The notes under the pieces were generated by a model. The model was not told the origin of the DNA and did no database searches. It worked only from the letters and a program-made list of their open reading frames with translations. Below are positions 7,294 through 61,216 of a stretch of DNA of 64,000 nucleotides, in pieces. Position numbers and translations under genes: made by a program. How positions within the stretch are numbered: position 1 is the stretch's first letter; each line of letters starts with the position of its first letter. Origin of the DNA: Myxococcota bacterium (GTDB lineage Bacteria; Myxococcota_A; SURF-8; G963663525); assembly GCA_963676915.2 (NCBI GenBank), contig CAXXVK010000064.1, forward strand, positions 1 through 64,000. Direction: 5' to 3'.

Positions 7294-7420
7294 TTTCGAC
7301 TCGTTACAAATCCGTTTTGGAAATACCGGATCAGTTTCTCATGGTTCCAATGGACGACGAAGCGTTATTCTACACTATTCAATGTGTAATGAAAAGCTTC
7401 GATTCCATTCTTTGTACTTC

Positions 7421-8767
7421 TCAAGCTTTGAAAGGATACTTTCTGAATGCGAAAAAGGCAATGGCGATAAATATGGCTCCTACAGGTCCAACAAGTTGAA
7501 TTCCCAACGGATTTTCAGCCGAGTTGCCGAAGAAGTGGAACAGCAGAGAACTCAGTAACCAGGCGAAACCGGAGGCAGAACGGGTGAAAAGCCCTTCGAC
7601 GCCGTTGTACATCGCCTCACGTCGCAGTCCGGTGCGTTTCTCGTCATGGTCGATGACATCGGCCAGTAAGGGACGCGGAAGAACGTTGAAAATGGCAACG
7701 GGAATGGTGGCAAAACCGAACAGGATGTATCCCTGTACCATCAGCGGAATGCTTTCGATCGAGCCAAGCCCGAGCATCAACGGAAGAATCACCATGAAAC
7801 CGATACAACCTGCCAAGGTTACGACTTTTTTGCCGAATTTTACGGAAGTCCAGTTCACTACGGGGAAAAGTACGACCGACCCAAGAAGAACAATCAATTG
7901 GATGACAGCCGCGTCGCCCTCGGTTCCACGCATGACGGTGGTGATCATGTAAGGGATTGCCACCACGACCAGATCCACGCCGATGCGAAAAGCGGTGACG
8001 AGATAGAGATACGGGCTGAACGCTTCATTCTGCCAGACCTGCTTAAAACCTTCCGTAAAGGAAAGCTCCACTTTTTTCGAGGGAGTATAGGGGTTTTCCT
8101 TGATACCGAAACCGGTGATGTAAAATGCTACTAACGTAAGGATACCGAACAGAAGCCCCGCAATCTGGAAGCCATTGAGTTGCAGTCCACCGATGACGTC
8201 CACACCGCATTTGTACTCGTTGATCAGGAGTCCGGCTCCGGCTGTTGCCGTCAAAACTCCCAACACTTCGAAAAGAGCCATCAGGGCGGAGACGGTCAGG
8301 CGTTCTTCATTATAAGGAGTTAATTCAGGAAGCAAGGAAAGATAGGGAGCTACAACGGCGGCAAACGCCATCGAGACAATCGACATCCAAAAACATACCC
8401 AGGCGGCGTTGATCAGCGATTCATGGCCGATGGGCGGGAACCAGATCAGGAACATCGCCAAGACCATGATCGGCGTGCCGACGAGGATGTAAGGAATACG
8501 CCGTCCCATTTTCGTGTTGGTTTTGTCCGACCAGTCGCCGATAAACGGATTGAGCAACGCCTCCGCTACACGACCGATCGCCAGCATCAGACCGATCAGA
8601 TAAACAGGAACGTAGGAAACCAGACATGAGCCGTCTTCCGGTGGCGGAGAATAATAGTACATCGCCCAGGAGCCGACGATAGCCGGAAGCAGTCCAACAC
8701 CGGAATTACCGATGGAATACGCCATTCTCTGCCAGAAACTCAATGCACGTTCTTGCGTTTTAGACAA
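7421..8767 (-). CDS. MFS transporter, glycoside-pentoside-hexuronide (MelB-like) family
   Basis: About 12 TM segments; PFIGDWSDKTNTKMGRRIPYI and LADVIDHDEKRTGLRREAMY motifs. Confidence 0.9.
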   Translation of the reverse strand: MSKTQERALSFWQRMAYSIGNSGVGLLPAIVGSWAMYYYSPPPEDGSCLVSYVPVYLIGLMLAIGRVAEALLNPFIGDWSDKTNTKMGRRIPYILVGTPIMVLAMFLIWFPPIGHESLINAAWVCFWMSIVSMAFAAVVAPYLSLLPELTPYNEERLTVSALMALFEVLGVLTATAGAGLLINEYKCGVDVIGGLQLNGFQIAGLLFGILTLVAFYITGFGIKENPYTPSKKVELSFTEGFKQVWQNEAFSPYLYLVTAFRIGVDLVVVAIPYMITTVMRGTEGDAAVIQLIVLLGSVVLFPVVNWTSVKFGKKVVTLAGCIGFMVILPLMLGLGSIESIPLMVQGYILFGFATIPVAIFNVLPRPLLADVIDHDEKRTGLRREAMYNGVEGLFTRSASGFAWLLSSLLFHFFGNSAENPLGIQLVGPVGAIFIAIAFFAFRKYPFKA

Positions 8768-8790
8768 TGCCTTGCCTCGTTTCGTGGCGG

Positions 8791-9645
8791 CTACCCGCCT
8801 TGTTGTATCTGTTTGGAATTATTGCCACCTTCAGCCACTTCATCACTGGGGATTCTTTCAAGCGGCCACGGGTCGCGAGGTGCCATATGAACATTTTCAG
8901 GAAAAAATGTACGTGAAAACAGTCCTTGCGTGCCCTGAACGATAACCCAGGGATACCCGAGAGCGGGTGTCGGCAAGTATAGTTTTTCTTTTAGTGCATT
9001 GATTTTTACTTCAATGTAATTGATCGCCGCTCGTCTGCCATGATCGGTTTTGTTGTCTTTGGCAGGATAGGACTTGTTGACGTTGGCGAGCTTGTTTTCC
9101 AGTTCTTTCAAGCGGTTGGCAACAACAGGATCTTCTTTTTTGCCTTTTTCCGTGGCCCTACGAAGTCTTTGTCGCCATTTCGAAACGAGTCGTTTTTCCA
9201 CAGGGACGATAAGACGAGATTTCGGTGCAAGATCCAGGTCTTCGACTGGGCGGTAATCGTCTTTATTGAAAGTTCCGAGTAGCGCGCAGGCGGTTTTCAT
9301 GTCGGACAAAACAACAAGGTTCCAACCTTCCGGACCTTTTTGCAATTCGGTCGCTACGGCATCCCGTTCACAAAGCTTTCCCCATTCACGGTCGTGATTC
9401 CACGCATAGTAGCCGCCCCAGATCATTCCGGCTAGCAGCAGCAAACCGACGAAAAGAGAAAAAATCCCCGTCGCCCGTTTTCGATTTCCCTGAAAACTGG
9501 CCTCGAAATCAACAGCCGTCTGCCAGGCGGTATCGTGCTTTCCGCTGTCGTGAGATTGGGATTGTCCCTCGGATGTTTGTTTCAATGGCTCTCTCGATGG
9601 GAACAGGGATACATAAGATGAAAAGATCCTTAGCACATACAACAC
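8791..9645 (-). CDS. Hypothetical membrane protein (start uncertain)
   Basis: One TM segment (IFSLFVGLLLLAGMIWGGYY) followed by a basic, coiled-coil-like region; co-oriented with its neighbours. Confidence 0.55.
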   Translation of the reverse strand: MLYVLRIFSSYVSLFPSREPLKQTSEGQSQSHDSGKHDTAWQTAVDFEASFQGNRKRATGIFSLFVGLLLLAGMIWGGYYAWNHDREWGKLCERDAVATELQKGPEGWNLVVLSDMKTACALLGTFNKDDYRPVEDLDLAPKSRLIVPVEKRLVSKWRQRLRRATEKGKKEDPVVANRLKELENKLANVNKSYPAKDNKTDHGRRAAINYIEVKINALKEKLYLPTPALGYPWVIVQGTQGLFSRTFFPENVHMAPRDPWPLERIPSDEVAEGGNNSKQIQQGG

Positions 9646-9704: not shown

Positions 9705-9736
9705 ACGGGGGCTGAATCTTTCGATCCAGCCCCCGT
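9705..9736 (-). terminator. GC-rich hairpin downstream of the receptor-lipoprotein pair (probable terminator)
   Basis: ACGGGGGCTG...CAGCCCCCGT stem with a GAAA loop on the minus strand; weak U-tract. Confidence 0.55.
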
Positions 9737-9770
9737 GGGGAGAATGTTACTCGTATTGGAAAACGAAGAC

Positions 9771-10613
9771 TTACTCTTCTCCCTCCAAACCACAGTGGGC
9801 TTCACCATAGTGACCAAGGGTGATCAAGGCTTCGTAAAAAGCGTCGTACTCGGTCATAGATTCAAGATCGGTCTGGGTAACGTCCAAGGTTCCTTCACTG
9901 GCAAGAGCGGCAAAAGGACCGAAACCGATGGCGATGTCGTTGATTTCGCCTTCGGTGTCGTCGATGTCACCGAAAATGTGGTCGAAATGGAACGTCGCCT
10001 GAGCTTCGCCCTGTCCCTCTTTATCGACAACGCCGATGTTATCGGGATGAGGACCGCAGCTTACGTAGTTCATTTCTTCCGTCAGTTTGATCGTGAAATT
10101 CACGGTTTCCGTATCTTTTACGGCTGTTCCGATCAAGACAATGGAATATCCTTTGGCGTCATCGACAACGCCGTTGGTATCATCGCCAGCCTTGACGATA
10201 TTGAAATTCAAGTAGTTGTAATTGCCGATGGCTGCGCCTTGAACCGTACCGATGGGTAGAGCATTGGTGCCTTGGGTCAGATCCTGCATGTAGCTACCAA
10301 TCAAGGCTTCGTTTGCAGCACCGTCGGGGATATCGACGTGGGAATGTCCCGCGTGAAGCAGTTTTTTCGACGTATCCGTTTCTTCGTCGGCGACCTGAAA
10401 CGCCGTCGGACCATCGATGGTGAGATAGACGTGCTCGAACGACATGGTCCAACCGTCTTCGGTGACAAAGCCATCTCGAATGAAGTCTTCACCATTCATC
10501 GTGAACACCAGTGTACCGGTATCCGTAGTCTCTTCTTCGTCGTCATCACCTCCGCAGCCAGAGAAAGCCAACAGGCCGATCATCAGAATCAGGATCCACT
10601 TGCATGATTTCAT
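9771..10613 (-). CDS. His-containing lipoprotein (DUF4382-like), probable metal-uptake partner of the TonB-dependent receptor
   Basis: Lipobox FSGC; NGEDFIRDGFVTEDGW; HAGHSH, FHFDHIFGD and GHYGEAHC His clusters; directly downstream of the receptor. Confidence 0.7.
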   Translation of the reverse strand: MKSCKWILILMIGLLAFSGCGGDDDEEETTDTGTLVFTMNGEDFIRDGFVTEDGWTMSFEHVYLTIDGPTAFQVADEETDTSKKLLHAGHSHVDIPDGAANEALIGSYMQDLTQGTNALPIGTVQGAAIGNYNYLNFNIVKAGDDTNGVVDDAKGYSIVLIGTAVKDTETVNFTIKLTEEMNYVSCGPHPDNIGVVDKEGQGEAQATFHFDHIFGDIDDTEGEINDIAIGFGPFAALASEGTLDVTQTDLESMTEYDAFYEALITLGHYGEAHCGLEGEE

Positions 10614-25036: not shown

Positions 25037-26983
25037 TTACCAGTCCAATTTTCGAAGCGCTTTTTCCACGTCTTGGGCGTTGAGTCTTCCCACGAGTTCC
25101 GGCATTACCAGTCCCATACCCCAACGGATTTTCGCTTCAGGGTCCGTGCTGGCGAAAGGTTTTCGAATTTCCCGTTTTTCTTTAATGATGTTCATCAGTT
25201 CGGTTTCGAGATTTACCGTTCGGATCGCGTATTTCGATACGATGGTCTCGACAGGAGTATCCGGGCTTTGAAGAATCGTTTCGAGAATCGGCGTGAGGCT
25301 TTGCAATAACAATTCGCCGTTGACCGCTTTTTGTGCCAGCATTTCAACGAGTTCGGCAGTGAAACGTTCGACGCCCAACCCTTTACGCTGTCCAAAACGC
25401 AATTTTTGTGTAACTCGGCAAATCAGGCTTCGCAGGTCGATATCCGGTGATTCGGCAAGCAGGGTTTCGAACAGCGTTCCCATTTTGCGAACGACGAGCA
25501 TGGAAAGCACATCTTTGGGAAGATGCAGCGGAACTAGCTTTTCGGACAACTCCCACGGCATTTTCGGTAGATTCCTGCGAATTTCCGACACACGTTCCGG
25601 GGTGATTTCAATCGGCGGAAGATCCGTGTCGGGATACATCCGGTCGGCTCCCGGAAGGATGCGTTCGAAACCGTTGGTGCCATCTTTGTGGTGACAGCGG
25701 GTTTCGGCGGGAACGCCTTCGGTAGCTTCTTTGGCACGGATGATGATTTCGTTTGCGGCAGTGAGGATGTCGTCCTTCGAACCCCAGGTGACGACCACGG
25801 CGTCCTCGGGTCCGGCTTTCAGTTTTTTCCTGATCCGATGCCATTGACTGTTGGAAATCGTTGGGTCGAGAGAGTCGGAATGAATCATATTCGGGTGGCC
25901 GTGCAGACAAGCGATGATCCGTACCCGGTCCGAAATCTCACGGGCGAACGAAGTCATGGTTTGTGTTTGTTCGCGCAAAATCCCGGCAAAGCCTTCCAAC
26001 TTCACCGCACGCATTCGCTGGCCTTTTTCCAAGGCGTGCAGGATGGGGATGTACGAGGTCTTCAGCAAGGCTCCGGTCACGTCACGATGCTCGGCATGGA
26101 ACGTCTCGGGCGTAATTCCTCGCTTGCTTAAAATATCCTTGATTCTCAAAAGGTTCCATTGACGCATTGCCTCATTGTAGACCAGCAGCGGAATGCGTCG
26201 CAGGGAATCCACACCCTTGATTTCGATTCGAGTGCCACCGGCGATGGAAACGTTGACATCCTCGCGTCCAGCGCCGATTCCGGTACGGACCTTTCCCGTA
26301 GCGCGAACCAAAGCCCGTAGGATTTCACCCACTTCCATACATTCGGTCGGCGTAACCATCTCCGGCTCGGTGACGGTTTCGATCAGCGGCATACCAAGGC
26401 GGTCGGTTCGGAACGTAATACGGTGACCGACGTTTTCGACTTCTCGGCAGGCATCTTCTTCCAGGCCGAGTTGACGGATACCGATACTGCGGTCATTGTA
26501 AGGAATACTACCGTTGATACCCAGAATCGTCGTACGCTGAAACCCGGTAGGAATCGAACCGTCCAGATACTGCTTACGAGCAATGTGCAACTCGCCGATC
26601 AGATTAAGTTTCAAAAGAAGTGCGACTTCTATGGCGATATCCACCGCTTGATCGTCGATTTCAAAAGGCGGGGCATCGTCCATTTCATAGGTGCAGACCG
26701 TCTCCCGGTTGAGCAGATAGACGATTTCTTTTTTCGTCTTGAATTCCATCAAGGCGGTGCCGTCGTATTCACCCAATTCCGAAAGCGTGGGACGCATGTG
26801 CCGTAAAACCTCGGCGTCGTGTTTTTTCGAATACAGACCCGCTTTGCAACGACAGAACAGCTTGCGTTCGGTCAACAACTGCTGGTGAATTTCCAAGCCG
26901 GTACGAAGGCCGAGCGCGTGCCAATCTTCATCCGTCATTTCGGGGAGTTTCTTAAAAGGATTGCGTGAAAAATCATGTTCCAT
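25037..26983 (-). CDS. gatE: Glu-tRNA(Gln) amidotransferase subunit GatE (archaeal type)
   Basis: GLEIHQQL..KLFCRC, RPTLSELGEYD, RKQYLDGSIPTGFQRT, LEEDA, DRLGMPLIE, REDVNVSIAGGTRIEIKGV and LPGADRMYPDTDLPP. 648 aa including the AspRS-like insertion that GatB lacks. Confidence 0.92.
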   Translation of the reverse strand: MEHDFSRNPFKKLPEMTDEDWHALGLRTGLEIHQQLLTERKLFCRCKAGLYSKKHDAEVLRHMRPTLSELGEYDGTALMEFKTKKEIVYLLNRETVCTYEMDDAPPFEIDDQAVDIAIEVALLLKLNLIGELHIARKQYLDGSIPTGFQRTTILGINGSIPYNDRSIGIRQLGLEEDACREVENVGHRITFRTDRLGMPLIETVTEPEMVTPTECMEVGEILRALVRATGKVRTGIGAGREDVNVSIAGGTRIEIKGVDSLRRIPLLVYNEAMRQWNLLRIKDILSKRGITPETFHAEHRDVTGALLKTSYIPILHALEKGQRMRAVKLEGFAGILREQTQTMTSFAREISDRVRIIACLHGHPNMIHSDSLDPTISNSQWHRIRKKLKAGPEDAVVVTWGSKDDILTAANEIIIRAKEATEGVPAETRCHHKDGTNGFERILPGADRMYPDTDLPPIEITPERVSEIRRNLPKMPWELSEKLVPLHLPKDVLSMLVVRKMGTLFETLLAESPDIDLRSLICRVTQKLRFGQRKGLGVERFTAELVEMLAQKAVNGELLLQSLTPILETILQSPDTPVETIVSKYAIRTVNLETELMNIIKEKREIRKPFASTDPEAKIRWGMGLVMPELVGRLNAQDVEKALRKLDW

Positions 26984-43982: not shown

Positions 43983-44020
43983 AAACGAAAAGGCCGGCAT
44001 TAAGCCGGCCTTTTCGTTTT
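43983..44020. terminator. Bidirectional rho-independent terminator
   Basis: 16-bp perfect stem AAACGAAAAGGCCGGC / GCCGGCCTTTTCGTTT between convergent genes. Confidence 0.9.
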
Positions 44021-44045: not shown

Positions 44046-44681
44046 TTAGGGAAATATCAGTACATATATTCCCACAATCGCTAAAATGGGGAATACAAAA
44101 GTTGCACCTGCAAGCAAAATATTGCCAAAAGCTTTCATTGTTGAAAACCCTTGAACCTGACCAACACACTTACACATGAGTATTAAAGTCAAAATAATCC
44201 CAGAAAATCTCAAATAGAGAAAAAAAAGCTTTACGTTAATATGCTCCAGAAATGTAGGGGTGATGTTGCTTGTAAATAGATCATTCCCGAATATCAAGTA
44301 CTCTGGAATCCATAGAACCAAAGAATAAATGATCGGCATTTGCGACCAAGTTATCGCGCAACGAATTTGCTCACCAGATGCATTGCCTTTTATCCACGAT
44401 CCAGTCCAACGAATCAGGAATCCAAATAGATAAATTTTAAAAATACCTCAAAGAACTCCATAAGAAATTGCTAGACAAAAAATGTAACCAGGATGGAAAT
44501 TATCACCAACACCGTTAGTTGATGCTTTATCTAGCGAATTTACAAAACCTAAAATTCCAGCCAATGGAATGACCATATAGTTGGGATCGGATTCAATTAT
44601 TCTTTGAGTTGTAAGTCGTGGTTGTATGAAAATTGAAAACCAAGGATTGAGTTGTTCCTCGCCTAATTTTACCATTCCCAT
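44046..44681 (-). pseudogene. Yip1-family membrane protein interrupted by one in-frame TGA (44448-44450)
   Basis: The two listed ORFs share one frame: LNPWFSIFIQPRLT...YGVL*GIFKIYLFGFLIRWTGSWIKGNASGEQIRCAITWSQMP... The segment is AT-rich. Confidence 0.75.
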
Positions 44682-44699
44682 CCTATTTTAACTGGTCCA

Positions 44700-45638
44700 T
44701 TAATCGCTTGTAGGCCAGAAGTGCGGTTGTCCGTTTTCGTCGAGCGGTTGATGCCCGGACAAGTGGCAGTTGCGGCATGCGGCGTTGGGTCGGTCCGTAT
44801 CGGTGTCATCCTGCCTGTGGCAGTAGATGCAGCCGGTCATTTGTGCACCGGCGGGGTCATTGGCGTCTACATTATCTTGAATTGCCTGCATGTGCATGAT
44901 GTGCAGGTCACCGGTCGATCCTTCAAAGTTGTGACATTGCAGACATTCGGGAATGGCTCCGTGCGATTCTTCCGCCACCTGGTGGCAACCGCCGCAGCCG
45001 GGATGGAACATGGCGATTTTGATCGATTCATTCGCTACGTAATAGCCTTCTTTCCAGATTGTCGCGTGCATGTTGGTGCCTGCCGAAAGCAGGTCTTCGG
45101 GGCGCATCGAACCTGTGTAGCCTACGGTTTCATTCGCGGAGTTTGTGAATACTTCGGTGGTGACGTTGTCTTTCAACCATGCGTGACAGGCTCCCGCACA
45201 GTTGGTTTCCCCCTGAAAAACGCTCGAACGTGTGGTTTCAGAAAACGTTTTGATGCCGTGCCCGTGGCCGAGTTCATCGACGGGGTGGCAGGAGAAGCAG
45301 TCGGCCAGATCGGTTTCGGTGTGGCGGCCACGATCGGGCCACGGAGAAGCCATTTGCTGTTTTCCTGCCTCGGGAAGCGCTTTTTCGAAACGCACCAGTC
45401 CCAAACCTTGTTCCACGAGCCATTCCCGAGGACCGGCGTCCTCGTCGGAATGAACGGCGGCCAGGGCTTCATAATCGTGACAAATCGAGCAATCTCGCAC
45501 CAGTTTGGGAAGGTTTACTTCTTCTTCTGCATCGCTGTCTCCGGGTGAATTGTTATCGGAGCCGGAATCCGAACAAGCCGCAAAGCTCATCGCGAGTATC
45601 GCAATGGCTATCAATATTGCAAAGTATTGTTTTTTCAT
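44700..45638 (-). CDS. Multiheme cytochrome c lipoprotein (6 CxxCH + 1 CxxxCH)
   Basis: Lipobox FAAC; CSICH, CFSCH, CAGACH, CGGCH, CLQCH, CIYCH and CRNCH. Confidence 0.9.
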   Translation of the reverse strand: MKKQYFAILIAIAILAMSFAACSDSGSDNNSPGDSDAEEEVNLPKLVRDCSICHDYEALAAVHSDEDAGPREWLVEQGLGLVRFEKALPEAGKQQMASPWPDRGRHTETDLADCFSCHPVDELGHGHGIKTFSETTRSSVFQGETNCAGACHAWLKDNVTTEVFTNSANETVGYTGSMRPEDLLSAGTNMHATIWKEGYYVANESIKIAMFHPGCGGCHQVAEESHGAIPECLQCHNFEGSTGDLHIMHMQAIQDNVDANDPAGAQMTGCIYCHRQDDTDTDRPNAACRNCHLSGHQPLDENGQPHFWPTSD

Positions 45639-45651
45639 GGTTTATCTCGCT

Positions 45652-46278
45652 TCAGGGCATCCATCCATCGGTAAGTTCATCACACACCGCAACACGGAAC
45701 GAGGCTTCGGCAATGTGTCGGTACCCAAGGTTCGGTCCTGGATATTTTACATATTCATGACCCAAACCGTTGTAGGCTCCACCAAAGAACGCCGAGCGAA
45801 TCGCCCGAAACGCCATCCGAAGGATGGGCATTTCATTTTGTACTTTCACCAGTATTTCCATACGTTCAGCATAATCCAGATCGATGAACGAACCGCCGGG
45901 GCTGTTGATATCGAACAAGGTGGCCAGTTCGGGGATCATCGTTCGGAACGGATAGTATTCGTCGAACATCAGGTTGAGAGAGCAGGCTTCCAGGCCACCG
46001 GGATCGCCGTCCGGGTCCAGGGAAGGGCCGGGAACCACGGTATCCACCACAGCGGCCAATGTGCGTTCTGCTTCGGATGACGCTTGCAGACAAGCGCCTT
46101 CCAATATTGGGCGTGTCCAACCGGGCGAGGCGTATTTCGCCGTTTCGGCCAGTCCCGAACCGTAAGCCGCAGTTGCCAGCAAGAATCCCAACGAATGCTT
46201 CATGAACTTCCGTCGTGAAAGATCGGAGGGTTTGAGGCGATTGGGAGCGATTTCGTCGTGTTTTTGAGGATTTTTCAT
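45652..46278 (-). CDS. Tat-exported small subunit, gluconate 2-dehydrogenase subunit-3-like
   Basis: Twin-arginine signal SRRKFMK; TLAAVVDTVVPG, FIDLDYAERMEIL and VKYPGP pattern. Confidence 0.75.
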   Translation of the reverse strand: MKNPQKHDEIAPNRLKPSDLSRRKFMKHSLGFLLATAAYGSGLAETAKYASPGWTRPILEGACLQASSEAERTLAAVVDTVVPGPSLDPDGDPGGLEACSLNLMFDEYYPFRTMIPELATLFDINSPGGSFIDLDYAERMEILVKVQNEMPILRMAFRAIRSAFFGGAYNGLGHEYVKYPGPNLGYRHIAEASFRVAVCDELTDGWMP

Positions 46279-47724
46279 TTACTTGTTCTCCACGAGATAC
46301 GCGGCGATGCGCTCGGCATTGGCAGCGATAGTGTGGGCCGGATTCACGCCCGTACCGCCGGGAACCGAAGCCCCGTCCGTGCAGTAGATACCGGGATTGG
46401 AGCGCAACTCTCCGTTGGGTGTGCAGGGGGCTTTCTCCTCATTGTCGCCGATTCGGCAAGTTGCCAGCGGGTGAGCGTCACCGTGTTCGTAGGTGTGATC
46501 GGCGGTACGAAACAGTTTCGCACCGGTTTCCTCCTGAATGCGCAATCCGACTCCGGCAACTTTATCAAGGTAAGCCTTGAAATGGTCCGTTTGCGGAATG
46601 TTGAACTTCAGCAGTCCGCTGTCGTCCGCCCAGACTTCGCCTTCTCCGTCAACCAGACCGATTGCCAAGGACGAAACCAGGCGGTTGGGATAGTTGTCGC
46701 GTAGAAAATGCTTGAATTCTACACCGAAAGGAATGTCCGGCTTGCCGCCGTCCTCACGTACGATGTCGAGTGCTGCGTAAATCGCCGGGGGAGAACCACC
46801 CGCGTGGATGGTGATTTTGTGTTCCTCCCAGAAGGCGTAGGTAATCATTCCGGCATTGTTTCGACCCATGTAGGACCAGGCATCCGGGAAGTCCTCGGGC
46901 AATTGGAAGACGAGGGCCATATCCCCGTTTTGATTGAAGTTTTTTCCGACCTGTGGATGCAGGTCGCTCAGGTAGTTTGCCGAACGTTGCAGAATCACAG
47001 GGGTTTCCAAGGCTCCGGCCGCCATCAGCAACATGGGGGTCGCCACTTTGCGTTCGATATTGAACTCGTCCACATACACCACGATGTGGTTGGACGACGC
47101 ACCGTCTTCCTCGATGTGGTCCACCTTGGCATTGACAAGGAATTCGGCTCCAGCCGATTCGGCTTGCGGAATGTAGTTGAATCCCAGGTGCTTTTTCTTG
47201 TCGTAAGGACAACCGCACATGCAGAAACCGCAATGCAGACAATCATGTATGGGATACATGGCGCGATCGCAGGTTAGTCCCATTTTGTCGAGCAGCATGG
47301 CGAAACAGCCGCCGACTTTCGGAACGTCCTCCCAGGCGATGCGCTCGATTTCCATCATCCGCTCGACTTCCTCGTAATGCGGATCGAGCACCGAACGGGT
47401 CACGCTAGCGGGCCAGACCTTGTAACCGTTCTGGTCGGTATAGTCGAACACTTCGGAGGGAGAACGCAGCATGGCGGCGGCGTAGGTCACGGAGCCACCA
47501 CCCAATCCTTTGCCATAGCGCATGAAGACGGTGTAATCCTCGCTGGTGTAACTGGTGAACATCCGCATTTGATTGCGAAATCCCCAGTCCATTTTGTAAT
47601 CTTTGGCGCTAAAACGCTGTCCCTGTTCAAGAACCAGCACTTTTCGTCCGTCTTCGGCAAGGCGCAATGCCGGGATCGAGCCACCGAACCCAGACCCCAC
47701 GATTACAACATCATAGGTTTCCAC
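46279..47724 (-). CDS. GMC oxidoreductase, cholesterol-oxidase (ChoD)-like, with a Cys cluster motif
   Basis: YDVVIVGSGFGG, GLGGGS, CLHCGFCMCGC, HPLATC and GVNPAHTI; no signal peptide; GTG start. Confidence 0.88.
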   Translation of the reverse strand: METYDVVIVGSGFGGSIPALRLAEDGRKVLVLEQGQRFSAKDYKMDWGFRNQMRMFTSYTSEDYTVFMRYGKGLGGGSVTYAAAMLRSPSEVFDYTDQNGYKVWPASVTRSVLDPHYEEVERMMEIERIAWEDVPKVGGCFAMLLDKMGLTCDRAMYPIHDCLHCGFCMCGCPYDKKKHLGFNYIPQAESAGAEFLVNAKVDHIEEDGASSNHIVVYVDEFNIERKVATPMLLMAAGALETPVILQRSANYLSDLHPQVGKNFNQNGDMALVFQLPEDFPDAWSYMGRNNAGMITYAFWEEHKITIHAGGSPPAIYAALDIVREDGGKPDIPFGVEFKHFLRDNYPNRLVSSLAIGLVDGEGEVWADDSGLLKFNIPQTDHFKAYLDKVAGVGLRIQEETGAKLFRTADHTYEHGDAHPLATCRIGDNEEKAPCTPNGELRSNPGIYCTDGASVPGGTGVNPAHTIAANAERIAAYLVENK

Positions 47725-47934
47725 GTGATATTCTCCGAAAAAATGTGAGTCGATAAGATGCGTTTTTTCAACATATGAAGAATAAAAATCGTCGTCAACT
47801 TTTCTATCGAAAACTCATCGTTTTTTACGTCTCAACTCATTGACGATACAAAGGGAAAACGGGTAAAACATCCTTGTGTTTTCCAAACTATTCCAAATGT
47901 GGACAATTCGTGATTTTTCGTGGCAGGAGAGACT

Positions 47935-48483: not shown

Positions 48484-48836
48484 ATCACATCATGCTATAG
48501 TATGAAAGGTTTGCGGTCTTGTTGGGTGAAAAAGGGTTCCTGCTAAACATTTGCTGTCGAGAAACGCATGCGGTTTTCTTATGATTTTCTTAAGGCTCAA
48601 ATGTTTAAATTATTGTGGGGGGAAGATAGAAAAGCCCGAGTAAAAACCAGTGGTTGTCGTATGAAAACTCGGATTTTGGAAATCTTTAAACGTGTGGTGG
48701 AAATGGAATCCCTGCAAACTTTCATCGCCAGTTCGTCAAATTCAATAACTATTGGCTCTTCTGTTGCATAATACGATTGGTTTGGATTATGGTAGAGAAA
48801 ACGAAACGATTCATCTTGGTAGCGGACGAGGTTTTC

Positions 48837-51800
48837 ATGAATCCATATATCGGGGGTTGGTCGACACGAAACCTATTTGTTTTGTTGGCTTTCGTGGTTC
48901 TTGGAATAGGGGCAGTCGGCTGCGAAGGAACATCCGCTCCTGCCAATCGCTGCAATCCGGAATGTCTTCCCGGACTGGAATGCGTCGATGGCACTTGTGT
49001 CTGTTCGGACAGCGATTGCTGCACGACAAGTGACGACTGCGATCCTGGGCAAATTTGCAACACGGCAACCATGCAATGTTGCGTTTTGGGTGAAAACGGT
49101 TGCGGCGGCGAAACACCGGACACGGATGACGATGTAGAGGAAAGCAACGCCGACGGTGACGAAACCGACGATGCGGATATCTCCGATACGGAAGAACTTT
49201 CTGAAGAGGAAGAAGAAGCGGTCTGTGTCGAAGAGGGAGATCCTTGTACCGAAGCCGGGTTGCTCCTCTGCCACGAATGCAGCGACGAAACCGTTCAGGC
49301 TTGCAATCCCGTTGATCCCAATCAACCCGATGGTGACAAACAATGGGAACTCGTAGCCTGTTCTGCCATTTGCTTCGATTCCGAGAAACTTGCTCTGTAT
49401 TGCGAGATGTTCTGCGAAAATGGAGTTGCCTGTTGCAGTTCTTGTTCCTGTGACTGTGGCTCGGCGGATGGTGACGATGACGGCGACGAAGTGGTAGATA
49501 GCGACATCGATGATACGGACGATATCGAAGTCGAAGAAGATGTCACCCCCCAGGATTGCTATGTCGAACAGCGCCATATCGGGGTGGATGTTCTGAATCA
49601 TATCGAGGATTTACCGGCGTTTCGGCAGTTGTCCTGGGCCGAGCAGGTCAGCAGTGCGGACCCCGGTGATGTCGGCGACGACATGGCCCCCAATCCATTG
49701 CAAGACGGTGACGAAAAGGTTGTTGTCGATGTCAACCGGCCTGGTTGCATCACCCGGATGTGGTTCTCGAATCCCGAAGAAATCGGCTCGCGGCTGCTTT
49801 CGATTTACCTCAACGATTCCGAACAGCCGGTGCTGGATATTTCCTTCCCGACGCTGTTTGCAGGACAGACCGCTCCGTTCCTGAGTCCGCTTGTGAAAAA
49901 CACGGGCGATGCTTACCTCAGTTACGTGCCGATCTGCTTCTCGAAGTCGGTGAAAGTAACGATCCAAGGCGGCGGAAGACTCGAAAACTTCGCCTACCAG
50001 TTCACGTACGGAACCTTTAGCAACGATCTCGGAGTCGAAGATTTTTCGATCGATCTCGACATTGAAGACCTTGTGGACTTCTATACCAATTCGCTCGGTA
50101 ACGATCCGAAACCTTATGATGCAAGCGGTCCGAACTCCAACGTTCACTCTTTCCCGTTAAGCGGCCAACCTGCACCTGGTGTAACCGTCACGATGTCTCA
50201 AATCAACGGTCCCGGTGTCATTGAACGGATCTTGTTCGATGTCAATCCGAAAGAACCCGATCCGCCATATGGTGAGTACGATGTGCTTCGCAATGTCCGT
50301 TTGCAGATCTTTTTCGACGGCAAATCCGTCCCGGATGTCGATGCGCCCGTGGACCTGTTCTTCGGTTCAGGATTCGGGGAGGACGATAGCTACACAGGAT
50401 TAATGAACGGCATGACTGGTGCGGAAAGCTGGGCCGGAGCCGATTATTGGTATTCCTTCTGGCCGATGCCTTTCAAAACAAAGGCTATTGTGAAACTGGT
50501 AAATGACTCACCGATCACGTTGGATTCCGTAGAATATCGTGTGTATTACCGAACGATGCCGGAAGAAGAATGGCCCAATGATTGGGGACATTTCCATGCT
50601 ACGTATAACGAAGCGCTTCCGGCGACGGGTGATGGCGACTATACGTTGCTGCATACGTCCGGTCGTGGTCAGTACGTCGGAACGATGCTCGGCATCGAAA
50701 ACGGGGATACCTACAACAAGGATTGGATCGAAGGCGACGATAGGGTCTTTATCGATGGTTCATCCTCGCCACAACTGAGCGGTACCGGTTTGGATCACAT
50801 GTTCAACGGTGGTCGCGAATGGCGAAGCAGCTATACCGGACCTTTCGCAAGTGTCACAAAGCATAGTGATTTCCCGTATCAATTCAGCGCACGTCGTTTG
50901 TATCTGTCCGACGCCATTCCGTTCAATACCGAACTTCTCTACAACCTTGAGCGGGTGTTCGAGTTGTCCAGTGGAACGGAAAAAGTCACGGAAGCCAAGT
51001 ACCGTTCTTTAGCTCTGTACTATCGTTCTTGTCTGGGTGGCATGTCGATTACAGACCAGGTAGATTTGGGGAATCCCTCCGATCGCGTCCTGCACGAATT
51101 CGATGCGGCCTTTGAAAATGATCGTTGGCAGACCCCCAATCGATTTTTCGGAAGCACGAAAATTCTCTGCACCTATCAAGGAAACGAATGTCCTACCAAG
51201 TACGTATGCACCGATAGTCGAACCATCACCACCGAGCTTTATGCTGGATGTGAAGAATCTTCGCCCGAATGCCGATGCATTCCGAGGCTTTCGGGAGTCG
51301 TCCTGACCTCTTCGGCGGAGAGTCCGAGTTTTATGGAAGTCACGATGGAGATCGATCCCGACAACGTGGGACTACGCCTTTCCCGTGTGTTGGATTACAG
51401 CTTCGCCGATCAGGAAGCCGAAGTCTGGATCGGTTCCACCGAGGTGGGAGCGACGATGCGCAAGGCCGGTGTCTGGCGTACGCCGGGACGCAATCAAAGC
51501 AAGTCCTGGCGGGAAGATTTCTTCGATATTCCTTATTGCCTGATTCAGGATCTTGTAGGAAATCAAGTGCGTTTGCGCTTCTTGCATACTGGCGGCAATG
51601 AGTGGAATATCTATGATCTCAAGGTTTATTCTTACCTTTCGCCGGATCGTACCCAAGCCGGTCCGGGAGTCGTGGATGTCGATACGATTCAGGCCGAATA
51701 TTCCCTGTCGCGCATTAGTCTGAGTTGGCAGGCTCCGACCGGAACGCCTCCTGCCTATTACCACATCTTCAAAAACCTCGATTCGCCGAGTTTCGCTTGT

Positions 51801-52532
51801 ACCGGTGATCCAGCCGCTACGGTATCGACGAATTCCTGGGACGATCCTACGCCGTACCCCGCACAATCCAACGTCTACTACAAGATTCTTCCCGAAGATT
51901 GCATGGGACAACGTAGTGAAAACTGCTCCGAAACCTTTACCGCTTCAACGCCGTTGCCGCCAAAATGCATCAATGTGGAAGACGCTGTTGACTTGACCAA
52001 TTCCGATATGCCCATAGATCCCGATCTGCCGGAAACCTACACTGGAGAAATCGAAATCGAAGGCTTCGTCGGTGAAACGGACGGCGTGATCGGTATCTCT
52101 CCCGAAGATCCGCCCATTGGATACACTTGGGTGGGACGTCGCAGCACCAGTTCTCTGGTAGTGAACGTCAAGCCTCTGGTAACCGGTGATTACAACATTG
52201 GTATTCGTTACGGTAAAGGTACGGATTACGCCAAGTGGCAACTGTCGGTTCAGGGTATTCCGCAGGGGGATATCCAAAACGGATTCAACGCCACGGAAAT
52301 TGTATATCCTCCAACGGTGGATGACAGCCCGCAACTTCAGTTCATCAGCACCAAACGTTTAACTGTGCCGGACGGAACGGATTTCTACGACAACCCGGAA
52401 GCCTGGGAAGAATGGGACGGAATTTCCTTCGTCTTCAAACTCAAGGGAGCCGATACGGGAGCCTCCGGAAGCCAGAAACGGGTGACGCTGGACCAGATAT
52501 GTCTTGAAGGGACGGCTGAAGAAAGCCGCTAA
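48837..52532 (+). CDS. Large Cys-rich lipoprotein with DUF2961 (GH172-like) domains, an FN3-like domain and CBM-like domains
   Basis: Lipobox AVGC, Cys-rich modules and acidic linkers; PGCITRMW, GPGVIERI, VDAPVDLFFG, FWPMPF, GHFHA, GRGQYVG and IEGDDRVFIDG...GTG; FN3-like LSWQAP..YYHIFK. Confidence 0.8.
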   Translation: MNPYIGGWSTRNLFVLLAFVVLGIGAVGCEGTSAPANRCNPECLPGLECVDGTCVCSDSDCCTTSDDCDPGQICNTATMQCCVLGENGCGGETPDTDDDVEESNADGDETDDADISDTEELSEEEEEAVCVEEGDPCTEAGLLLCHECSDETVQACNPVDPNQPDGDKQWELVACSAICFDSEKLALYCEMFCENGVACCSSCSCDCGSADGDDDGDEVVDSDIDDTDDIEVEEDVTPQDCYVEQRHIGVDVLNHIEDLPAFRQLSWAEQVSSADPGDVGDDMAPNPLQDGDEKVVVDVNRPGCITRMWFSNPEEIGSRLLSIYLNDSEQPVLDISFPTLFAGQTAPFLSPLVKNTGDAYLSYVPICFSKSVKVTIQGGGRLENFAYQFTYGTFSNDLGVEDFSIDLDIEDLVDFYTNSLGNDPKPYDASGPNSNVHSFPLSGQPAPGVTVTMSQINGPGVIERILFDVNPKEPDPPYGEYDVLRNVRLQIFFDGKSVPDVDAPVDLFFGSGFGEDDSYTGLMNGMTGAESWAGADYWYSFWPMPFKTKAIVKLVNDSPITLDSVEYRVYYRTMPEEEWPNDWGHFHATYNEALPATGDGDYTLLHTSGRGQYVGTMLGIENGDTYNKDWIEGDDRVFIDGSSSPQLSGTGLDHMFNGGREWRSSYTGPFASVTKHSDFPYQFSARRLYLSDAIPFNTELLYNLERVFELSSGTEKVTEAKYRSLALYYRSCLGGMSITDQVDLGNPSDRVLHEFDAAFENDRWQTPNRFFGSTKILCTYQGNECPTKYVCTDSRTITTELYAGCEESSPECRCIPRLSGVVLTSSAESPSFMEVTMEIDPDNVGLRLSRVLDYSFADQEAEVWIGSTEVGATMRKAGVWRTPGRNQSKSWREDFFDIPYCLIQDLVGNQVRLRFLHTGGNEWNIYDLKVYSYLSPDRTQAGPGVVDVDTIQAEYSLSRISLSWQAPTGTPPAYYHIFKNLDSPSFACTGDPAATVSTNSWDDPTPYPAQSNVYYKILPEDCMGQRSENCSETFTASTPLPPKCINVEDAVDLTNSDMPIDPDLPETYTGEIEIEGFVGETDGVIGISPEDPPIGYTWVGRRSTSSLVVNVKPLVTGDYNIGIRYGKGTDYAKWQLSVQGIPQGDIQNGFNATEIVYPPTVDDSPQLQFISTKRLTVPDGTDFYDNPEAWEEWDGISFVFKLKGADTGASGSQKRVTLDQICLEGTAEESR

Positions 52533-52999: not shown

Positions 53000-54922
53000 T
53001 TACAACTCAACACTTTGTTCGATGCGCTGGCCGACGAACTGCGCGATCCAACTGGACAAAGCACCGATAGTGATCATCGGATTGACGTTCGTTGAAGTGG
53101 GGACAACGGAGCCGTCCGCAATGAACAGGTTACGCACATCGAAAGTTTCCCCGCTCGAATTGACCACCGCTTCTCGGGGATTTGCGCCCATTCTCGCCGT
53201 TCCCAAAGGATGGTAGGCCGAAAGGTCCAGATCCATGGGTTTGGCAGGTCGGTCGAGATGCTGATGCAATTCTGTGGGATGATGAACGGTCGTGATACCG
53301 TGCAACGGCAACATGACCGTCCGCGCCCCGGCGGCGAGAAATACCCGGCTGAGGATTTCCATTCCACGTAGGATGCGCCCAAGGGTCGTTTTATCCATCC
53401 AGTAGGTAATTAATGGACGGCGGAAATTCGCGGCGGGCAACACACGTCCGACAGATGAATCCGAGACCATAAAACCGAACGTCGAAAGATGTCGGGCTTG
53501 TTCCATGAACGACTGGAGCTTCTCTCCAACGAAATCGGTAAAAACGGGAAGATGTGCAAACGGTGTCGTGGCACCTTCGAACAAGATGCCTTCCTCGTGA
53601 AATTCGTTGATCTGGTAGCCTTGAGGAATGAAGTTGTAGCCGTCCACGACTTCATCCATCACCGCCACCAGCGATGTAGCGGGGTGCACCGAAAGATTTT
53701 TTCCCAGCCATCCCGAAGAGTTGGCAAGCTTGTTTTTCATGAGCAACAGTGGAGTCAACAAAGCACCGCAAGCCAGCACAACGCATCGAGCCTTGATGGT
53801 GACTTTTCGTCCCGTATCTTTGCTGCGTCCACGAACGCCGTATGCCGTGCCGTTTTTGACGAGGATTTCGTCCACCACGGTTCGGGAGATGAGAAAAGCG
53901 TTGTTTTTCAAGGCGTCGGGAACGAACGAAACGTTTGTTCCTCGTTTGGCGTCGGTAGGACACCCGAACACACAAACGCCCTGGCCATCGCAATCGGGAG
54001 CATTGCGAGGCAGAGGACCGTGGGAATATCCCAACTCATCGGCTCCTCGACCAATGATTTTCCCTGTGGGGCCGACGTATTTCATGTCAGCGGTCGTGAC
54101 ACGGTAACCGGTTTCCATTTTGGCGAAATGCGGTTCGAGGTTGGCGGGTGTCAGGTCGCACAATCCGAAATTCTCCCGCCATTTCCGCAACACGGGACGG
54201 GGCGTTCGAAAACAGGTGCCTGAATTGACGGTTGTCGTTCCCCCAACCGTTTCTCCGATAGGGAGGTAAATCAGGCAGTTGCCGACGGTCATGGTATTGC
54301 CGCCCAGGAACCACATATCCTGTTGACGATCCCAGGCGCGACCATCGAACGTGCGACGGGTGAAGTAGTCCCCGGACTCGACCATCACCACCGCATGACC
54401 CTGAGAGGCCAACTCCGAAGCAACCACCGCACCACCCGCTCCGGTACCAACCACAACGGCCTCGGCTTCGAGTTCCAGATCTTCTGTAATATCGGAACCT
54501 TGCGTTACCTGTTGCCACCAGCTTCCCGTCTCGGGTTCTCCGGTTTCACAGGCGTATCGACAATTGAATTTTTCGTAATAGCCAGGCTTGTCGTAATAGG
54601 AGATCTTCATCAACAAGCTTACCAGACGAAACGCCTGAAATTCCACCCAGGTTGCCGTTCGCAGTTTTTCGATATACGCGGTCCGCTTGGCAGGAGACAG
54701 ATGACGCATCGAACGAACGTAGTTCAAACGTGCCCGCTCGTTGACAACGTGAAGCATTCCTTTGACGGAACGTATCGAAATCGGCGTCATTTTTGCGATG
54801 GCACGCTCGACAAGATCGACATCTTCCCAGGTATAGGCACCGAAAGATTTCGAAGCCGGAAACATGACTTCACCTAAAGCATAAACGATTTCCCGCTCGC
54901 GGTTGGAAAGAGTAGTTCCCAT
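53000..54922 (-). CDS. GMC oxidoreductase (long-chain alcohol oxidase-like) with an N-terminal helical extension
   Basis: VVGTGAGG, VGGTTTVNSG, CDGQGVCVFGCP, YHPLGT and NVNPMITI; AAGGAG RBS before the ATG at 54922. Confidence 0.88.
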   Translation of the reverse strand: MGTTLSNREREIVYALGEVMFPASKSFGAYTWEDVDLVERAIAKMTPISIRSVKGMLHVVNERARLNYVRSMRHLSPAKRTAYIEKLRTATWVEFQAFRLVSLLMKISYYDKPGYYEKFNCRYACETGEPETGSWWQQVTQGSDITEDLELEAEAVVVGTGAGGAVVASELASQGHAVVMVESGDYFTRRTFDGRAWDRQQDMWFLGGNTMTVGNCLIYLPIGETVGGTTTVNSGTCFRTPRPVLRKWRENFGLCDLTPANLEPHFAKMETGYRVTTADMKYVGPTGKIIGRGADELGYSHGPLPRNAPDCDGQGVCVFGCPTDAKRGTNVSFVPDALKNNAFLISRTVVDEILVKNGTAYGVRGRSKDTGRKVTIKARCVVLACGALLTPLLLMKNKLANSSGWLGKNLSVHPATSLVAVMDEVVDGYNFIPQGYQINEFHEEGILFEGATTPFAHLPVFTDFVGEKLQSFMEQARHLSTFGFMVSDSSVGRVLPAANFRRPLITYWMDKTTLGRILRGMEILSRVFLAAGARTVMLPLHGITTVHHPTELHQHLDRPAKPMDLDLSAYHPLGTARMGANPREAVVNSSGETFDVRNLFIADGSVVPTSTNVNPMITIGALSSWIAQFVGQRIEQSVEL

Positions 54923-55101
54923 GGAGGGTGCTCCTTGAAAGCTTGTGTAATCAAAACACATTAACACAGCGCGTTACGATTGCAAGAGAAGCAGCATTTT
55001 CGCTGCGCAAAATCATGATAGTGTTTGCCTCGAATGTCAATCTGTGTAAACTATCGTTCAATGTCGCGGACGAATGGGTGTAATTTTTTGTAGGAAAAAT
55101 C

Positions 55102-59541: not shown

Positions 59542-61216
59542 ATGGTGATGGAAGCAACGATTCAGCTTGCAGCGGTGGACTGGCTGATTATCGCCCTGTA
59601 TTTCGTGGCGATACTCGGCATCGGGTTGTATCTCAAACGCTTCGCCGATACGAAGGAAGACTTCTTCGAGGCCGGGCGTCGAAACAGTTCCTGGGTTGCG
59701 GGACTGGCCTTTGTGTCGGCCAACCTCGGTGCATTGGAAATCCTGGGATGGACCGGCGGAACGATCAAGTATGGCATGTTTGTGAGTCATTTTTACTGGA
59801 TCGGCGCAATTCCGGCGATGCTGTTTTTGGGATTGTTCATGATGCCATTCTACTATTCCAGCAAAATCCACTCTATTCCGGGCTATTTGCTGCTCCGCTT
59901 CGACGAGAAAACCCGTGTTCTAAACGCTATCGCATTTGCCGTAATGACGGTGCTTGATGAGCGGTATCAACATGTATCTGATGGCGCTGGTGTTTCATGT
60001 TGTGTTGGGATGGAACATGGATGTTTCCATCTGGATCAGCGCAGCGGCGGTAGGTTGCTACATCACGTTGGGAGGGCTGATGTCTGCGATTTTTACGGAA
60101 ATCGTGCAGTTTTTCCTGATTTGGTTCGGTTTGTTCCTCGTGTCGCTGCTCGGTATCATCGATCTGGGAGGATTGAGCCAGATCTTTGCCGGATTGCCGG
60201 ACACCATGGCCGGGTTGTGGTCCACCGCCGGGGACGCCAGCCTCAACGACATGGGCGTTACCTGGGTGGGAATCGTGCTCGGTCTGGGATTCGTGCTGTC
60301 TTTCGGCTACTGGACCACCGACTTCCTGCTGGTACAGCGCGCTTTTTCGGCCAAGGATCTCCAAGCCGCACGTATGACCCCGATCATCGCCGCGTTTTTC
60401 AAGATGATCCTGCCGTTTATCGTCGTGGTGGCCGGTTTGGTGGCGTACCAATTGATCGCTCGTGGCGACTTGCCTAAAGAACTGTTGGAGAATCCTGACT
60501 CCGCCTTGCCGTTATTGATCGCCAGGTACTATCCGCCGGGACTGATGGGATTGGGTATTACGGCCTTGCTTGCCGGATTTATGGCCAATTATGGCGGGTA
60601 AGCGGGTAAGAGAGTAGCCTTCAATACGGTATGGACTTACGATATCTACCGAGTGATCTTCAAGCGTGACGCCACCGACGAGCACCTGCTCAAAGTCGGG
60701 CGCATCACTACGGTGGTGGGAGTGTTCATCAGCATCATAACGGCGTATGTCGCCATGCAGTTCAGCACCATCATGGATTACATCCAGGCTATTTTTTCCT
60801 GGGTCAACGCGCCGCTGTTTGCAACAATGCTGCTTGGAATGTTCTGGAAACGCACCACAGCCGCCGGGGCTTTTTGGGGATTGATCGCCGGAATGCTGAC
60901 CTCGTTTTCGATCTTCCTGGGCTTCCGTTTCGGTCTGATCGGCGAGTCGGCTACATATCTGATCACCATGAGTCACGAGCCGTCCGACATGACGAAGAAC
61001 CTATGGCAGGCGTGGTGGGCCTGGGTGGTCTGCTTCGGCTTGACGATCATCATCAGCCTGTTTACTGCACCCAAGCCGGTGGAAGAACTCAAAGGTCTGG
61101 TGCGTGGTCTGACGGAAAAAGCGGAATTGGGACACGTTCCCTATTGGCGCTGGCCGGAAGTCTGGGCCGCTGTGGCGCTCGTCGCGTGTCTGATTCTCAA
61201 CATTTACTTCTGGTAG
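59542..61216 (+). CDS. Sodium:solute symporter (SSS), probably for galactose or another sugar; disrupted in this sequence
   Basis: DFFEAGR, SANLGALE, GYWTTDFLLVQRA, AFNTVWTYDIY and NAPLFAT. Extra T at ~59955; garbled 60590-60609 with a duplicated GCGGGTAA and an in-frame TAA. Confidence 0.82.

Follow-up and report, generated by a model that had tools for sequence, protein, structure and literature searches.

A predicted three-subunit FAD, iron-sulfur and heptaheme dehydrogenase encoded by a conserved gene trio on a Myxococcota contig

Three-subunit flavin adenine dinucleotide (FAD) dehydrogenases, on which direct-electron-transfer sensors for glucose and fructose are built, combine a GMC flavoprotein carrying an iron-sulfur (Fe-S) cluster with a small 'hitch-hiker' subunit of the twin-arginine translocation (Tat) pathway and a cytochrome, and their known three-heme subunit hands electrons to ubiquinone. 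The closest described systems are the glucose dehydrogenase BcGDH of Burkholderia cepacia (PDB 6a2u, 8grj) and the fructose dehydrogenase (FDH) of Gluconobacter (7w2j), in which the GMC catalytic subunit has no signal of its own. According to the available part of one report, the 3Fe-4S cluster through which electrons leave FAD for the cytochrome subunit of BcGDH is ligated by C212, C218 and C222 (PMC6719666), and the available part of another states that this cytochrome touches both other subunits, with a heme 7-8 Å from the cluster (PMC9727119). A further relative is AceDH (GmcA/GmcB) of Methylacidiphilum fumariolicum SolV, which we compare by description only: in the available part of its report the GMC alpha subunit carries the motif CDQCGFCFQGCT, which binds a 4Fe-4S core about 11 Å from FAD, with a Tat small subunit closing off the pocket of the cluster (bioRxiv 10.64898/2026.06.11.731722). 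Here we analyse, from the sequence and from computed comparisons, a trio of genes on the minus strand of a 64,000-nucleotide stretch of a Myxococcota bacterium (assembly GCA_963676915.2, contig CAXXVK010000064.1, positions 1 to 64,000; hereafter the window), located at positions 44700-47724. We propose, with a probability of roughly 0.65, that the trio encodes a periplasmic, membrane-tethered three-subunit FAD/Fe-S/heptaheme dehydrogenase.

The three open reading frames (ORFs) lie head to tail in the order GMC flavoprotein, small subunit, cytochrome, an order that differs from that of BcGDH and FDH. The catalytic subunit (46279..47724, minus strand) has 481 amino acids and a GTG start, the small hitch-hiker subunit (45652..46278, minus strand) has 208 amino acids and the Tat signal SRRKFMK, and the heptaheme c-type cytochrome (44700..45638, minus strand) is a lipoprotein of 312 amino acids. 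The ATG of the small subunit directly follows the GMC stop codon with a 0-bp gap, and the cytochrome ORF starts 13 bp past the small-subunit stop. All three genes have a G+C content of 54-56%, and the AT-rich spacers on either side have 34% and 36%. The flavoprotein has no signal peptide, as the FAD-binding strand stands at its very start (DVVIVGSGFGG from residue 5, with GSGFGG from residue 10). An earlier, sequence-only reading of this DNA had listed these two distances, six CxxCH motifs and one CxxxCH, the missing signal peptide and the string CLHCGFCMCGC; all are present, although Cys170 within the string is variable. It had also recognised the layout of the three-subunit FAD dehydrogenases, with an Fe-S flavoprotein carried by a Tat small subunit and accompanied by a cytochrome, and both the Cys alignment and the Gluconate_2-dh3 matches reported below bear this out. 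Genes, motifs, conservation and synteny are read directly from the sequence.

The feature relevant to the mechanism that the flavoprotein has in common with the dehydrogenases is the Fe-S motif. Alignment to the BcGDH ligands and conservation delimit it as C162-x2-C165-x2-C168-x3-C172-P (47206..47241, minus strand), with residues 162-173 reading CLHCGFCMCGCP. Among 26 family members of 33-95% identity Cys162, Cys168 and Cys172 are invariant and Cys165 is present in all but one, so that the conserved form is CxxCGxCxxGC, with Cys170 outside it. Cys162, Cys168 and Cys172 align with Cys212, Cys218 and Cys222 of BcGDH; the trio thus shares the position of the Fe-S ligands with BcGDH and FDH and differs from them in having four conserved Cys (CxxCxxCxxxCP) instead of three (Cx5Cx3C). 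With AceDH, whose structure, dating only from 2026, is the first for a four-Cys cluster motif, it shares the complete Cys spacing (CxxCGFCxxGC in AceDH, CLHCGFCMCGC here), as far as the available part of that report allows the comparison. The same text describes an additional Cu in AceDH, whose ligands are Asp188, which directly follows the first Cys, and Met144 in the small subunit (bioRxiv 10.64898/2026.06.11.731722). Since the position of this Asp is occupied by Leu163 in our flavoprotein, and by Arg or Leu in its relatives, a plain [4Fe-4S] cluster is likeliest, and the cluster on Cys162/165/168/172 is probably of this type. The small subunit ends in GWMP (45652-45663, minus strand), with a last-but-one residue that, among its 31 relatives, is Met in 23 and Leu in 8, and in AceDH the cluster copper is bound by a small-subunit Met that lies close to the conserved C-terminus, again according to the available text (bioRxiv 10.64898/2026.06.11.731722). 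The conserved C-terminal Met may leave room for a heterometallic cluster like that of AceDH.

In sequence and fold the flavoprotein stands between oxidases and Fe-S dehydrogenases, about equidistant from cholesterol oxidase on the one side and the Fe-S glucose and fructose dehydrogenases on the other. Pfam assigns GMC_oxred_N (6.6e-20) and GMC_oxred_C (2.3e-07), and an AF2 model built from 26 sequences is confident (mean predicted local distance difference test score, pLDDT, 88.9). Foldseek ranked BcGDH alpha (8grj_B, E 2.1e-31, TM-score 0.79) and the large subunit of Gluconobacter FDH (8jej_A, E 7.2e-31, TM 0.78) ahead of Streptomyces cholesterol oxidase (3cnj, E 1.5e-30, TM 0.75), the margin being small and the scores near-equal (TM 0.75-0.79). 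Searched against the PDB as a single sequence the flavoprotein matched cholesterol oxidase (6e-11) and BcGDH (7e-11) about equally well, whereas the family profile preferred BcGDH alpha (4.8e-34, 121 bits) to cholesterol oxidase (2.3e-30) and FDH (3.4e-25). The earlier label 'cholesterol-oxidase-like' is thus right in that cholesterol oxidases rank with the closest matches in both sequence and fold, but goes too far in view of the profile result and of the NCBIfam model for type I cholesterol oxidase (NF058674), which the flavoprotein matches with 111.3 bits, below the equivalog cut-off of 850.

The type I cholesterol oxidases (Streptomyces ChoA and Brevibacterium; 1b4v, 1coy) share with the flavoprotein the GMC fold (TM 0.75-0.77), the His/Asn pair and a similar length. 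No counterpart of the Cys motif appears in the PDB alignments, which begin past the motif at residue 177, and these oxidases have neither a small subunit nor a cytochrome, unlike the trio. The catalytic pair His418/Asn461 is invariant in the 26 sequences and aligns with the C-terminal catalytic region of BcGDH, the site of the GMC pair. His105 of BcGDH, which links FAD covalently, corresponds to Thr80 in a column that is variable in the family and in a stretch of the alignment that scores only 3.9 bits; AceDH is likewise described, in the available part of its report, as having covalent FAD. Could the flavoprotein then simply be an oxidase that uses O2, as cholesterol oxidase does, with the cytochrome as an unrelated neighbour or as an accessory, for example in peroxide handling? 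Such an enzyme would be expected to rank among these matches and to show the His/Asn pair, which is common to oxidases, and Thr80 would suit the non-covalent flavin of a type I cholesterol oxidase, subject to the low score of that stretch. It would not be expected to carry four conserved Cys at the site of a solved Fe-S cluster, to be exported through a Tat partner in place of a signal peptide of its own, or to fall so far short of the cholesterol oxidase model, and neither the synteny of the trio, kept down to 43% identity, nor the specific interface predicted for the complex (0.83 versus 0.33 for the best control) agrees with it. We regard a plain oxidase as improbable.

The Tat signal of the small subunit, SRRKFMK, comprises residues 21-27 (46198-46218) and is followed by a hydrophobic stretch. 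In an alignment of 31 relatives the twin arginines are at least 90% conserved, and the sequence PGPNLGY near the C-terminus (45721-45741) is almost wholly invariant. Pfam PF13618 (Gluconate_2-dh3) is matched by 21 of the 31 relatives (E<=0.1, best 2e-06) and DUF5987 by 10; no PDB chain was matched by the small subunit. Judged by its relatives, it is a divergent member of the Gluconate_2-dh3 hitch-hiker superfamily, the kind of Tat small subunit that BcGDH and FDH also have.

As in the BcGDH and FDH operons, a c-type cytochrome gene belongs to the trio, but its product is unrelated to their three-heme subunit. It begins with a lipoprotein signal ending in the lipobox FAAC (45573-45584), with Cys22 as the predicted lipidation site. 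Six CxxCH motifs start at residues 50 (45477-45491), 114 (45285-45299), 215 (44982-44996), 232 (44931-44945), 270 (44817-44831) and 288 (44763-44777), and a CxxxCH motif (CAGACH) at residue 147 (45183-45200), all on the minus strand. All seven, including CxxxCH, are invariant across 23 aligned cytochromes of 35-75% identity, and so are not due to chance, and the lipobox Cys is at least 90% conserved. The same alignment shows additional His, five of them invariant and three nearly so, a number sufficient for bis-His ligation of seven hemes, and no conserved Met was seen in it; the seven c-type hemes are thus probably mostly bis-His. With several heme sites and His as candidate sixth ligands the protein appears to belong to the multiheme c3/c7 class, in line with a borderline Pfam match to Cytochrome_C7 (25.2 bits, cut-off 24.8), such c7/c3 matches being the only ones above threshold. 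The proposal that the cytochrome is of a different, lipid-anchored multiheme sort is upheld by the seven invariant motifs and the conserved lipobox Cys.

The cytochrome forms a rare family for which we found no close described relative. By sequence no PDB entry was related at E<=10, although the cytochrome subunits of BcGDH and FDH are in the PDB, and Foldseek returned no PDB match at E<=0.001 for the model, a result that, with a model of only moderate quality, does not establish a new fold. Among 1.84 billion representative proteins the family profile found 82 clusters at E<=0.001, 45 of them at E<=1e-30. Of the longer profile hits ten were scanned, and none was a fusion to a small subunit or a GMC protein; eight had further heme domains only and two matched no family. 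Look-alikes in the Atlas, which serve as leads only, were generic c3/c7 multiheme clusters with scores of 0.86-0.88.

We next consider whether the three proteins may form a complex. In a prediction with the three mature chains and their own alignments, in which the cytochrome was the scored partner, the complex scored 0.83 (runs 0.83, 0.12 and 0.83), compared to 0.33 for the best of three controls. Of 157 complexes with solved structures 116 attained that mark, as did 2 of 215 mismatched pairs, a calibration that is only rough for three chains with own alignments. At least 40% of the contacts are shared between the runs, and the pLDDT of the cytochrome is at least 65. A memorised solution is unlikely for the cytochrome chain, since it has no solved relative. 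In the model the cytochrome contacts both other chains, as it does in BcGDH and FDH. The contacts of highest confidence are these: residues 180-185 of the small subunit, the invariant PGPNLG, meet cytochrome residues 124-128, including the invariant His127; residues 105-107 of the small subunit meet 207-209 of the cytochrome, beside the CGGCH heme site; and GMC residues 218-223 meet cytochrome residues 81-83. For AceDH the available text describes the C-terminal part of the small subunit as covering the cluster, and reduction of a c-type cytochrome in vitro (bioRxiv 10.64898/2026.06.11.731722); its acceptor cytochrome cGJ was a separate protein in those tests and is not described as a subunit in that part of the report. 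The three-chain model supports the complex that the earlier reading requires, without showing that the cytochrome binds.

Conservation of the trio was followed by word-indexed protein searches, which yielded 457 GMC, 73 small-subunit and 21 cytochrome relatives, and by a genome scan, from which the best 80 loci of 582 matching stretches were fetched, mostly distant relatives of 25-38% identity. One close locus among these 80, L001, contains the trio in the same order, with a GMC protein 43% identical to that of the window and with the small subunit and the cytochrome recognised by hmmsearch at 1.2e-64 and 3.2e-105, respectively; the syntenic trio expected from the window thus recurs. Its flanking genes (TauE, TPR and trehalose genes) are unrelated to the neighbours in the window, so that the trio alone is the conserved unit and the neighbours give no common clue to the substrate. 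The cytochrome is absent from the other 79 loci. In 14 of them a small-subunit-like ORF lies directly upstream of the GMC gene; these loci are mostly actinobacterial, and DUF5987 was confirmed in four. Indirect evidence of linkage came from hits whose longest contigs are equal in size, where a mismatch carries no information: 11 of the 21 cytochrome relatives share this size with a GMC or small-subunit hit, and 23 of the 73 small-subunit relatives with a listed GMC hit. A contig of 3,319 nt holds all three proteins (P0031, P0159, P0197), a GMC protein and a cytochrome occur together on two more, of 3,320 and 3,711 nt, and a small subunit (KBD49_11085) and a cytochrome (KBD49_11080) have adjacent locus tags. 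The relatives of the trio are labelled Deltaproteobacteria or Myxococcota.

For the proposed dehydrogenase we envisage the following route. The GMC flavoprotein would fold in the cytoplasm with FAD and the Fe-S cluster, bind the small subunit and cross the membrane via Tat on the twin-arginine signal of its partner, and the cytochrome would leave the cytoplasm on a route of its own, acquire its lipid at Cys22 and receive its seven c-type hemes. In the periplasm the cytochrome would dock on the face formed by the conserved C-terminal part of the small subunit and the flavoprotein, its lipid anchor tethering the complex to the membrane. The CH-OH group of a substrate, which might be a sugar, a polyol, a hydroxy-ketone or another alcohol, would transfer a hydride to FAD at His418/Asn461, and the electrons would then pass singly through the Fe-S cluster and the heme chain to a periplasmic or membrane acceptor other than O2. 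Nothing was found in favour of the sterol or lipid alcohol that the sequence-only reading had suggested as substrate; genes for sugar use abound in the window, and L001 has different neighbours.

A heme chain can run both ways, and the trio could in principle work in reverse, as a periplasmic reductase in which electrons travel from the hemes via Fe-S to FAD and on to a carbonyl or a double bond, comparable to Shewanella flavocytochrome c3 or urocanate reductase. The hemes appear to be bis-His and hence of a kind that is usually low-potential, and the window contains genes typical of anaerobes (radical SAM enzymes, a BcrAD/BadFG-type ATPase), as would befit a reductase. Periplasmic flavocytochrome reductases, however, have a different flavoprotein fold, that of the fumarate reductase type, all characterised GMC enzymes matched here are alcohol oxidases or dehydrogenases, and the His/Asn pair is a site of hydride abstraction. 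We thus give a reductase little credence.

The sequence-only reading had further considered a position at the cell surface. In such an arrangement the cytochrome would be exposed on the outside and the trio would be part of an extracellular electron-transfer route, an idea that draws on the Ser at position +2 of the lipoprotein, on a sub-threshold match to Pfam PF22113 (MtrC/MtrF domains II/IV; 23.6 bits, cut-off 30), and on Atlas look-alikes that include clusters named electron-transfer conduits (score 0.88, again leads only). The predicted partner, however, is a Tat-exported heterodimer, which places the complex in the periplasm, and neither a porin or beta-barrel gene nor one for a periplasmic decaheme or other second cytochrome adjoins the trio, in the window operon or in L001; among the 51 window ORFs examined the trio cytochrome is the only protein with CxxCH. 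On these grounds a surface location is not supported, and we consider it very unlikely.

Several observations weigh against the proposed three-subunit dehydrogenase. Its cofactor content and the complex itself are what we infer, as are the export route, the direction of electron flow and the class of substrate. The motif CxxCxxCxxxC occurs in the GMC ORFs of 49 of the 80 loci fetched, most of them without a recognisable partner gene (the loci were selected partly by a pattern that includes the four-Cys motif, and in a few the automatically chosen ORF is a fragment); many GMC genes thus have the motif without a small-subunit or cytochrome neighbour, so the motif alone implies no complex. GMC enzymes with four Cys are a large group, of which the trio is one small branch. 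The small subunit of the window itself has no Pfam or NCBIfam match, and the model of the cytochrome alone is moderate (pLDDT 71). One of the three complex runs reached only 0.12, and the Cys loop of the flavoprotein is not among the listed predicted contacts. In the operon no quinone-reducing or membrane-spanning subunit was found. Finally, homologues of the cytochrome (21) are fewer than those of the small subunit or the GMC protein, which may reflect the sensitivity of the search or a cytochrome that only part of the clade has.

Two other arrangements of GMC genes were observed. In actinobacterial loci (L002-L017) a relative of the small subunit with DUF5987 adjoins a GMC gene whose product is about 31% identical to that of the window, which resembles the trio; the small subunit, however, precedes the GMC gene, a multiheme cytochrome is lacking, and the GMC ORFs of L002-L015 have neither the four-Cys nor the three-Cys motif. 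In L012, for instance, the module (7364-7933, 7977-9626, 9732-10301) consists of a DUF5987 Tat-type small protein, a GMC protein without Cys motif and a DUF6423 protein; in L008, L010, L011, L013 and L015 a CMD-domain protein is found downstream. Some relatives of this GMC group bear the IMG label 'enediyne biosynthesis protein E9'. The window itself encodes a second GMC flavoprotein (53000-54967, minus strand) of 655 amino acids, whose N-terminal approximately 150 residues weakly match Gluconate_2-dh3 (E 0.0038) within the same chain. It has the three-Cys motif of the BcGDH type, CDGQGVCVFGC (residues 326-336), but no N-terminal twin-arginine signal and no adjoining cytochrome gene. By these features it would be a fused, possibly cytoplasmic form of the same enzyme class; a profile comparison of the small-subunit alignment of the trio with this protein gave no match (probability 0.4%).

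Upstream of the trio, a promoter-like sequence TTGACG-17-TATGTT (47770..47798, minus strand) lies 46 nt before the GMC start within the 195-nt intergenic stretch of 34% G+C. As evidence of a promoter it is weak, such sites not being enriched in the scanned region (4 versus 4.2 expected from shuffles). An Rfam scan of the whole window gave no match and hence no riboswitch clue to the substrate. The neighbours of the trio are a PK_C-like protein, a DUF2961 protein, HU and a Yip1 remnant. The latter lies directly 3' of the cytochrome gene in an island of 36% G+C (44046-44687, minus strand), where a single in-frame TGA (44448-44450) interrupts a gene for a Yip1-domain membrane protein. Of the resulting segments of 79 and 133 codons, the second aligns with the C-terminal portion of the Pfam family Yip1, below the cut-off (E 3.6e-05). 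Past this remnant follows a strong bidirectional terminator (43983-44019). On the other side of the trio a 1251-aa protein (48777-52532, plus strand) contains a central DUF2961 domain (residues 504-749, E 4e-49). Since it is located among genes for GH5, GH32, sugar transporters and galactokinase, the setting is one of sugar use.

Elsewhere in the window two successive ORFs of 311 and 187 amino acids (59542-61216, plus strand) align with the sodium:solute symporter family, the first with the beginning of its profile (positions 1-100) and the second with the end (329-406), as if a single transporter gene had been split or had lost its central part. A 648-aa protein (25037-26983, minus strand) has a GatB/GatE catalytic domain whose 277 profile positions are spread across residues 28-465, implying a large insertion of the kind that characterises archaeal-type GatE but not bacterial GatB.

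The combination of a GMC flavoprotein with an Fe-S cluster, a Tat hitch-hiker and a cytochrome is of a known kind; new in the trio is an unrelated, rare heptaheme lipoprotein as the predicted electron-transfer subunit, together with the four-Cys cluster motif. A full-text literature search, to whose coverage most subscription journals do not belong, returned no description of a GMC enzyme with such a heptaheme cytochrome. As far as we found, the described three-subunit FAD dehydrogenases use one kind of three-heme cytochrome, whereas the trio pairs the same catalytic core with an unrelated seven-heme lipoprotein, which would mean that evolution has joined more than one sort of heme module to the Fe-S exit port of GMC enzymes. 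The four-Cys cluster motif is extended beyond the single solved case and is widespread. More tentatively, and with considerable doubt, the trio might represent an undescribed class of respiratory dehydrogenases of uncultured diderms, in which the electrons of a Tat-exported FAD/[4Fe-4S] GMC enzyme would flow straight into a dedicated, lipid-anchored chain of seven hemes, so that periplasmic oxidation of an external organic alcohol would directly serve anaerobic, possibly extracellular, acceptors, bypassing the cytoplasm and NAD. If this were true, it would be a natural direct-electron-transfer enzyme with a heme chain much longer than that in biosensors. For poorly known sediment-type bacteria the trio would point to a route by which they may respire on periplasmic alcohols or sugars.

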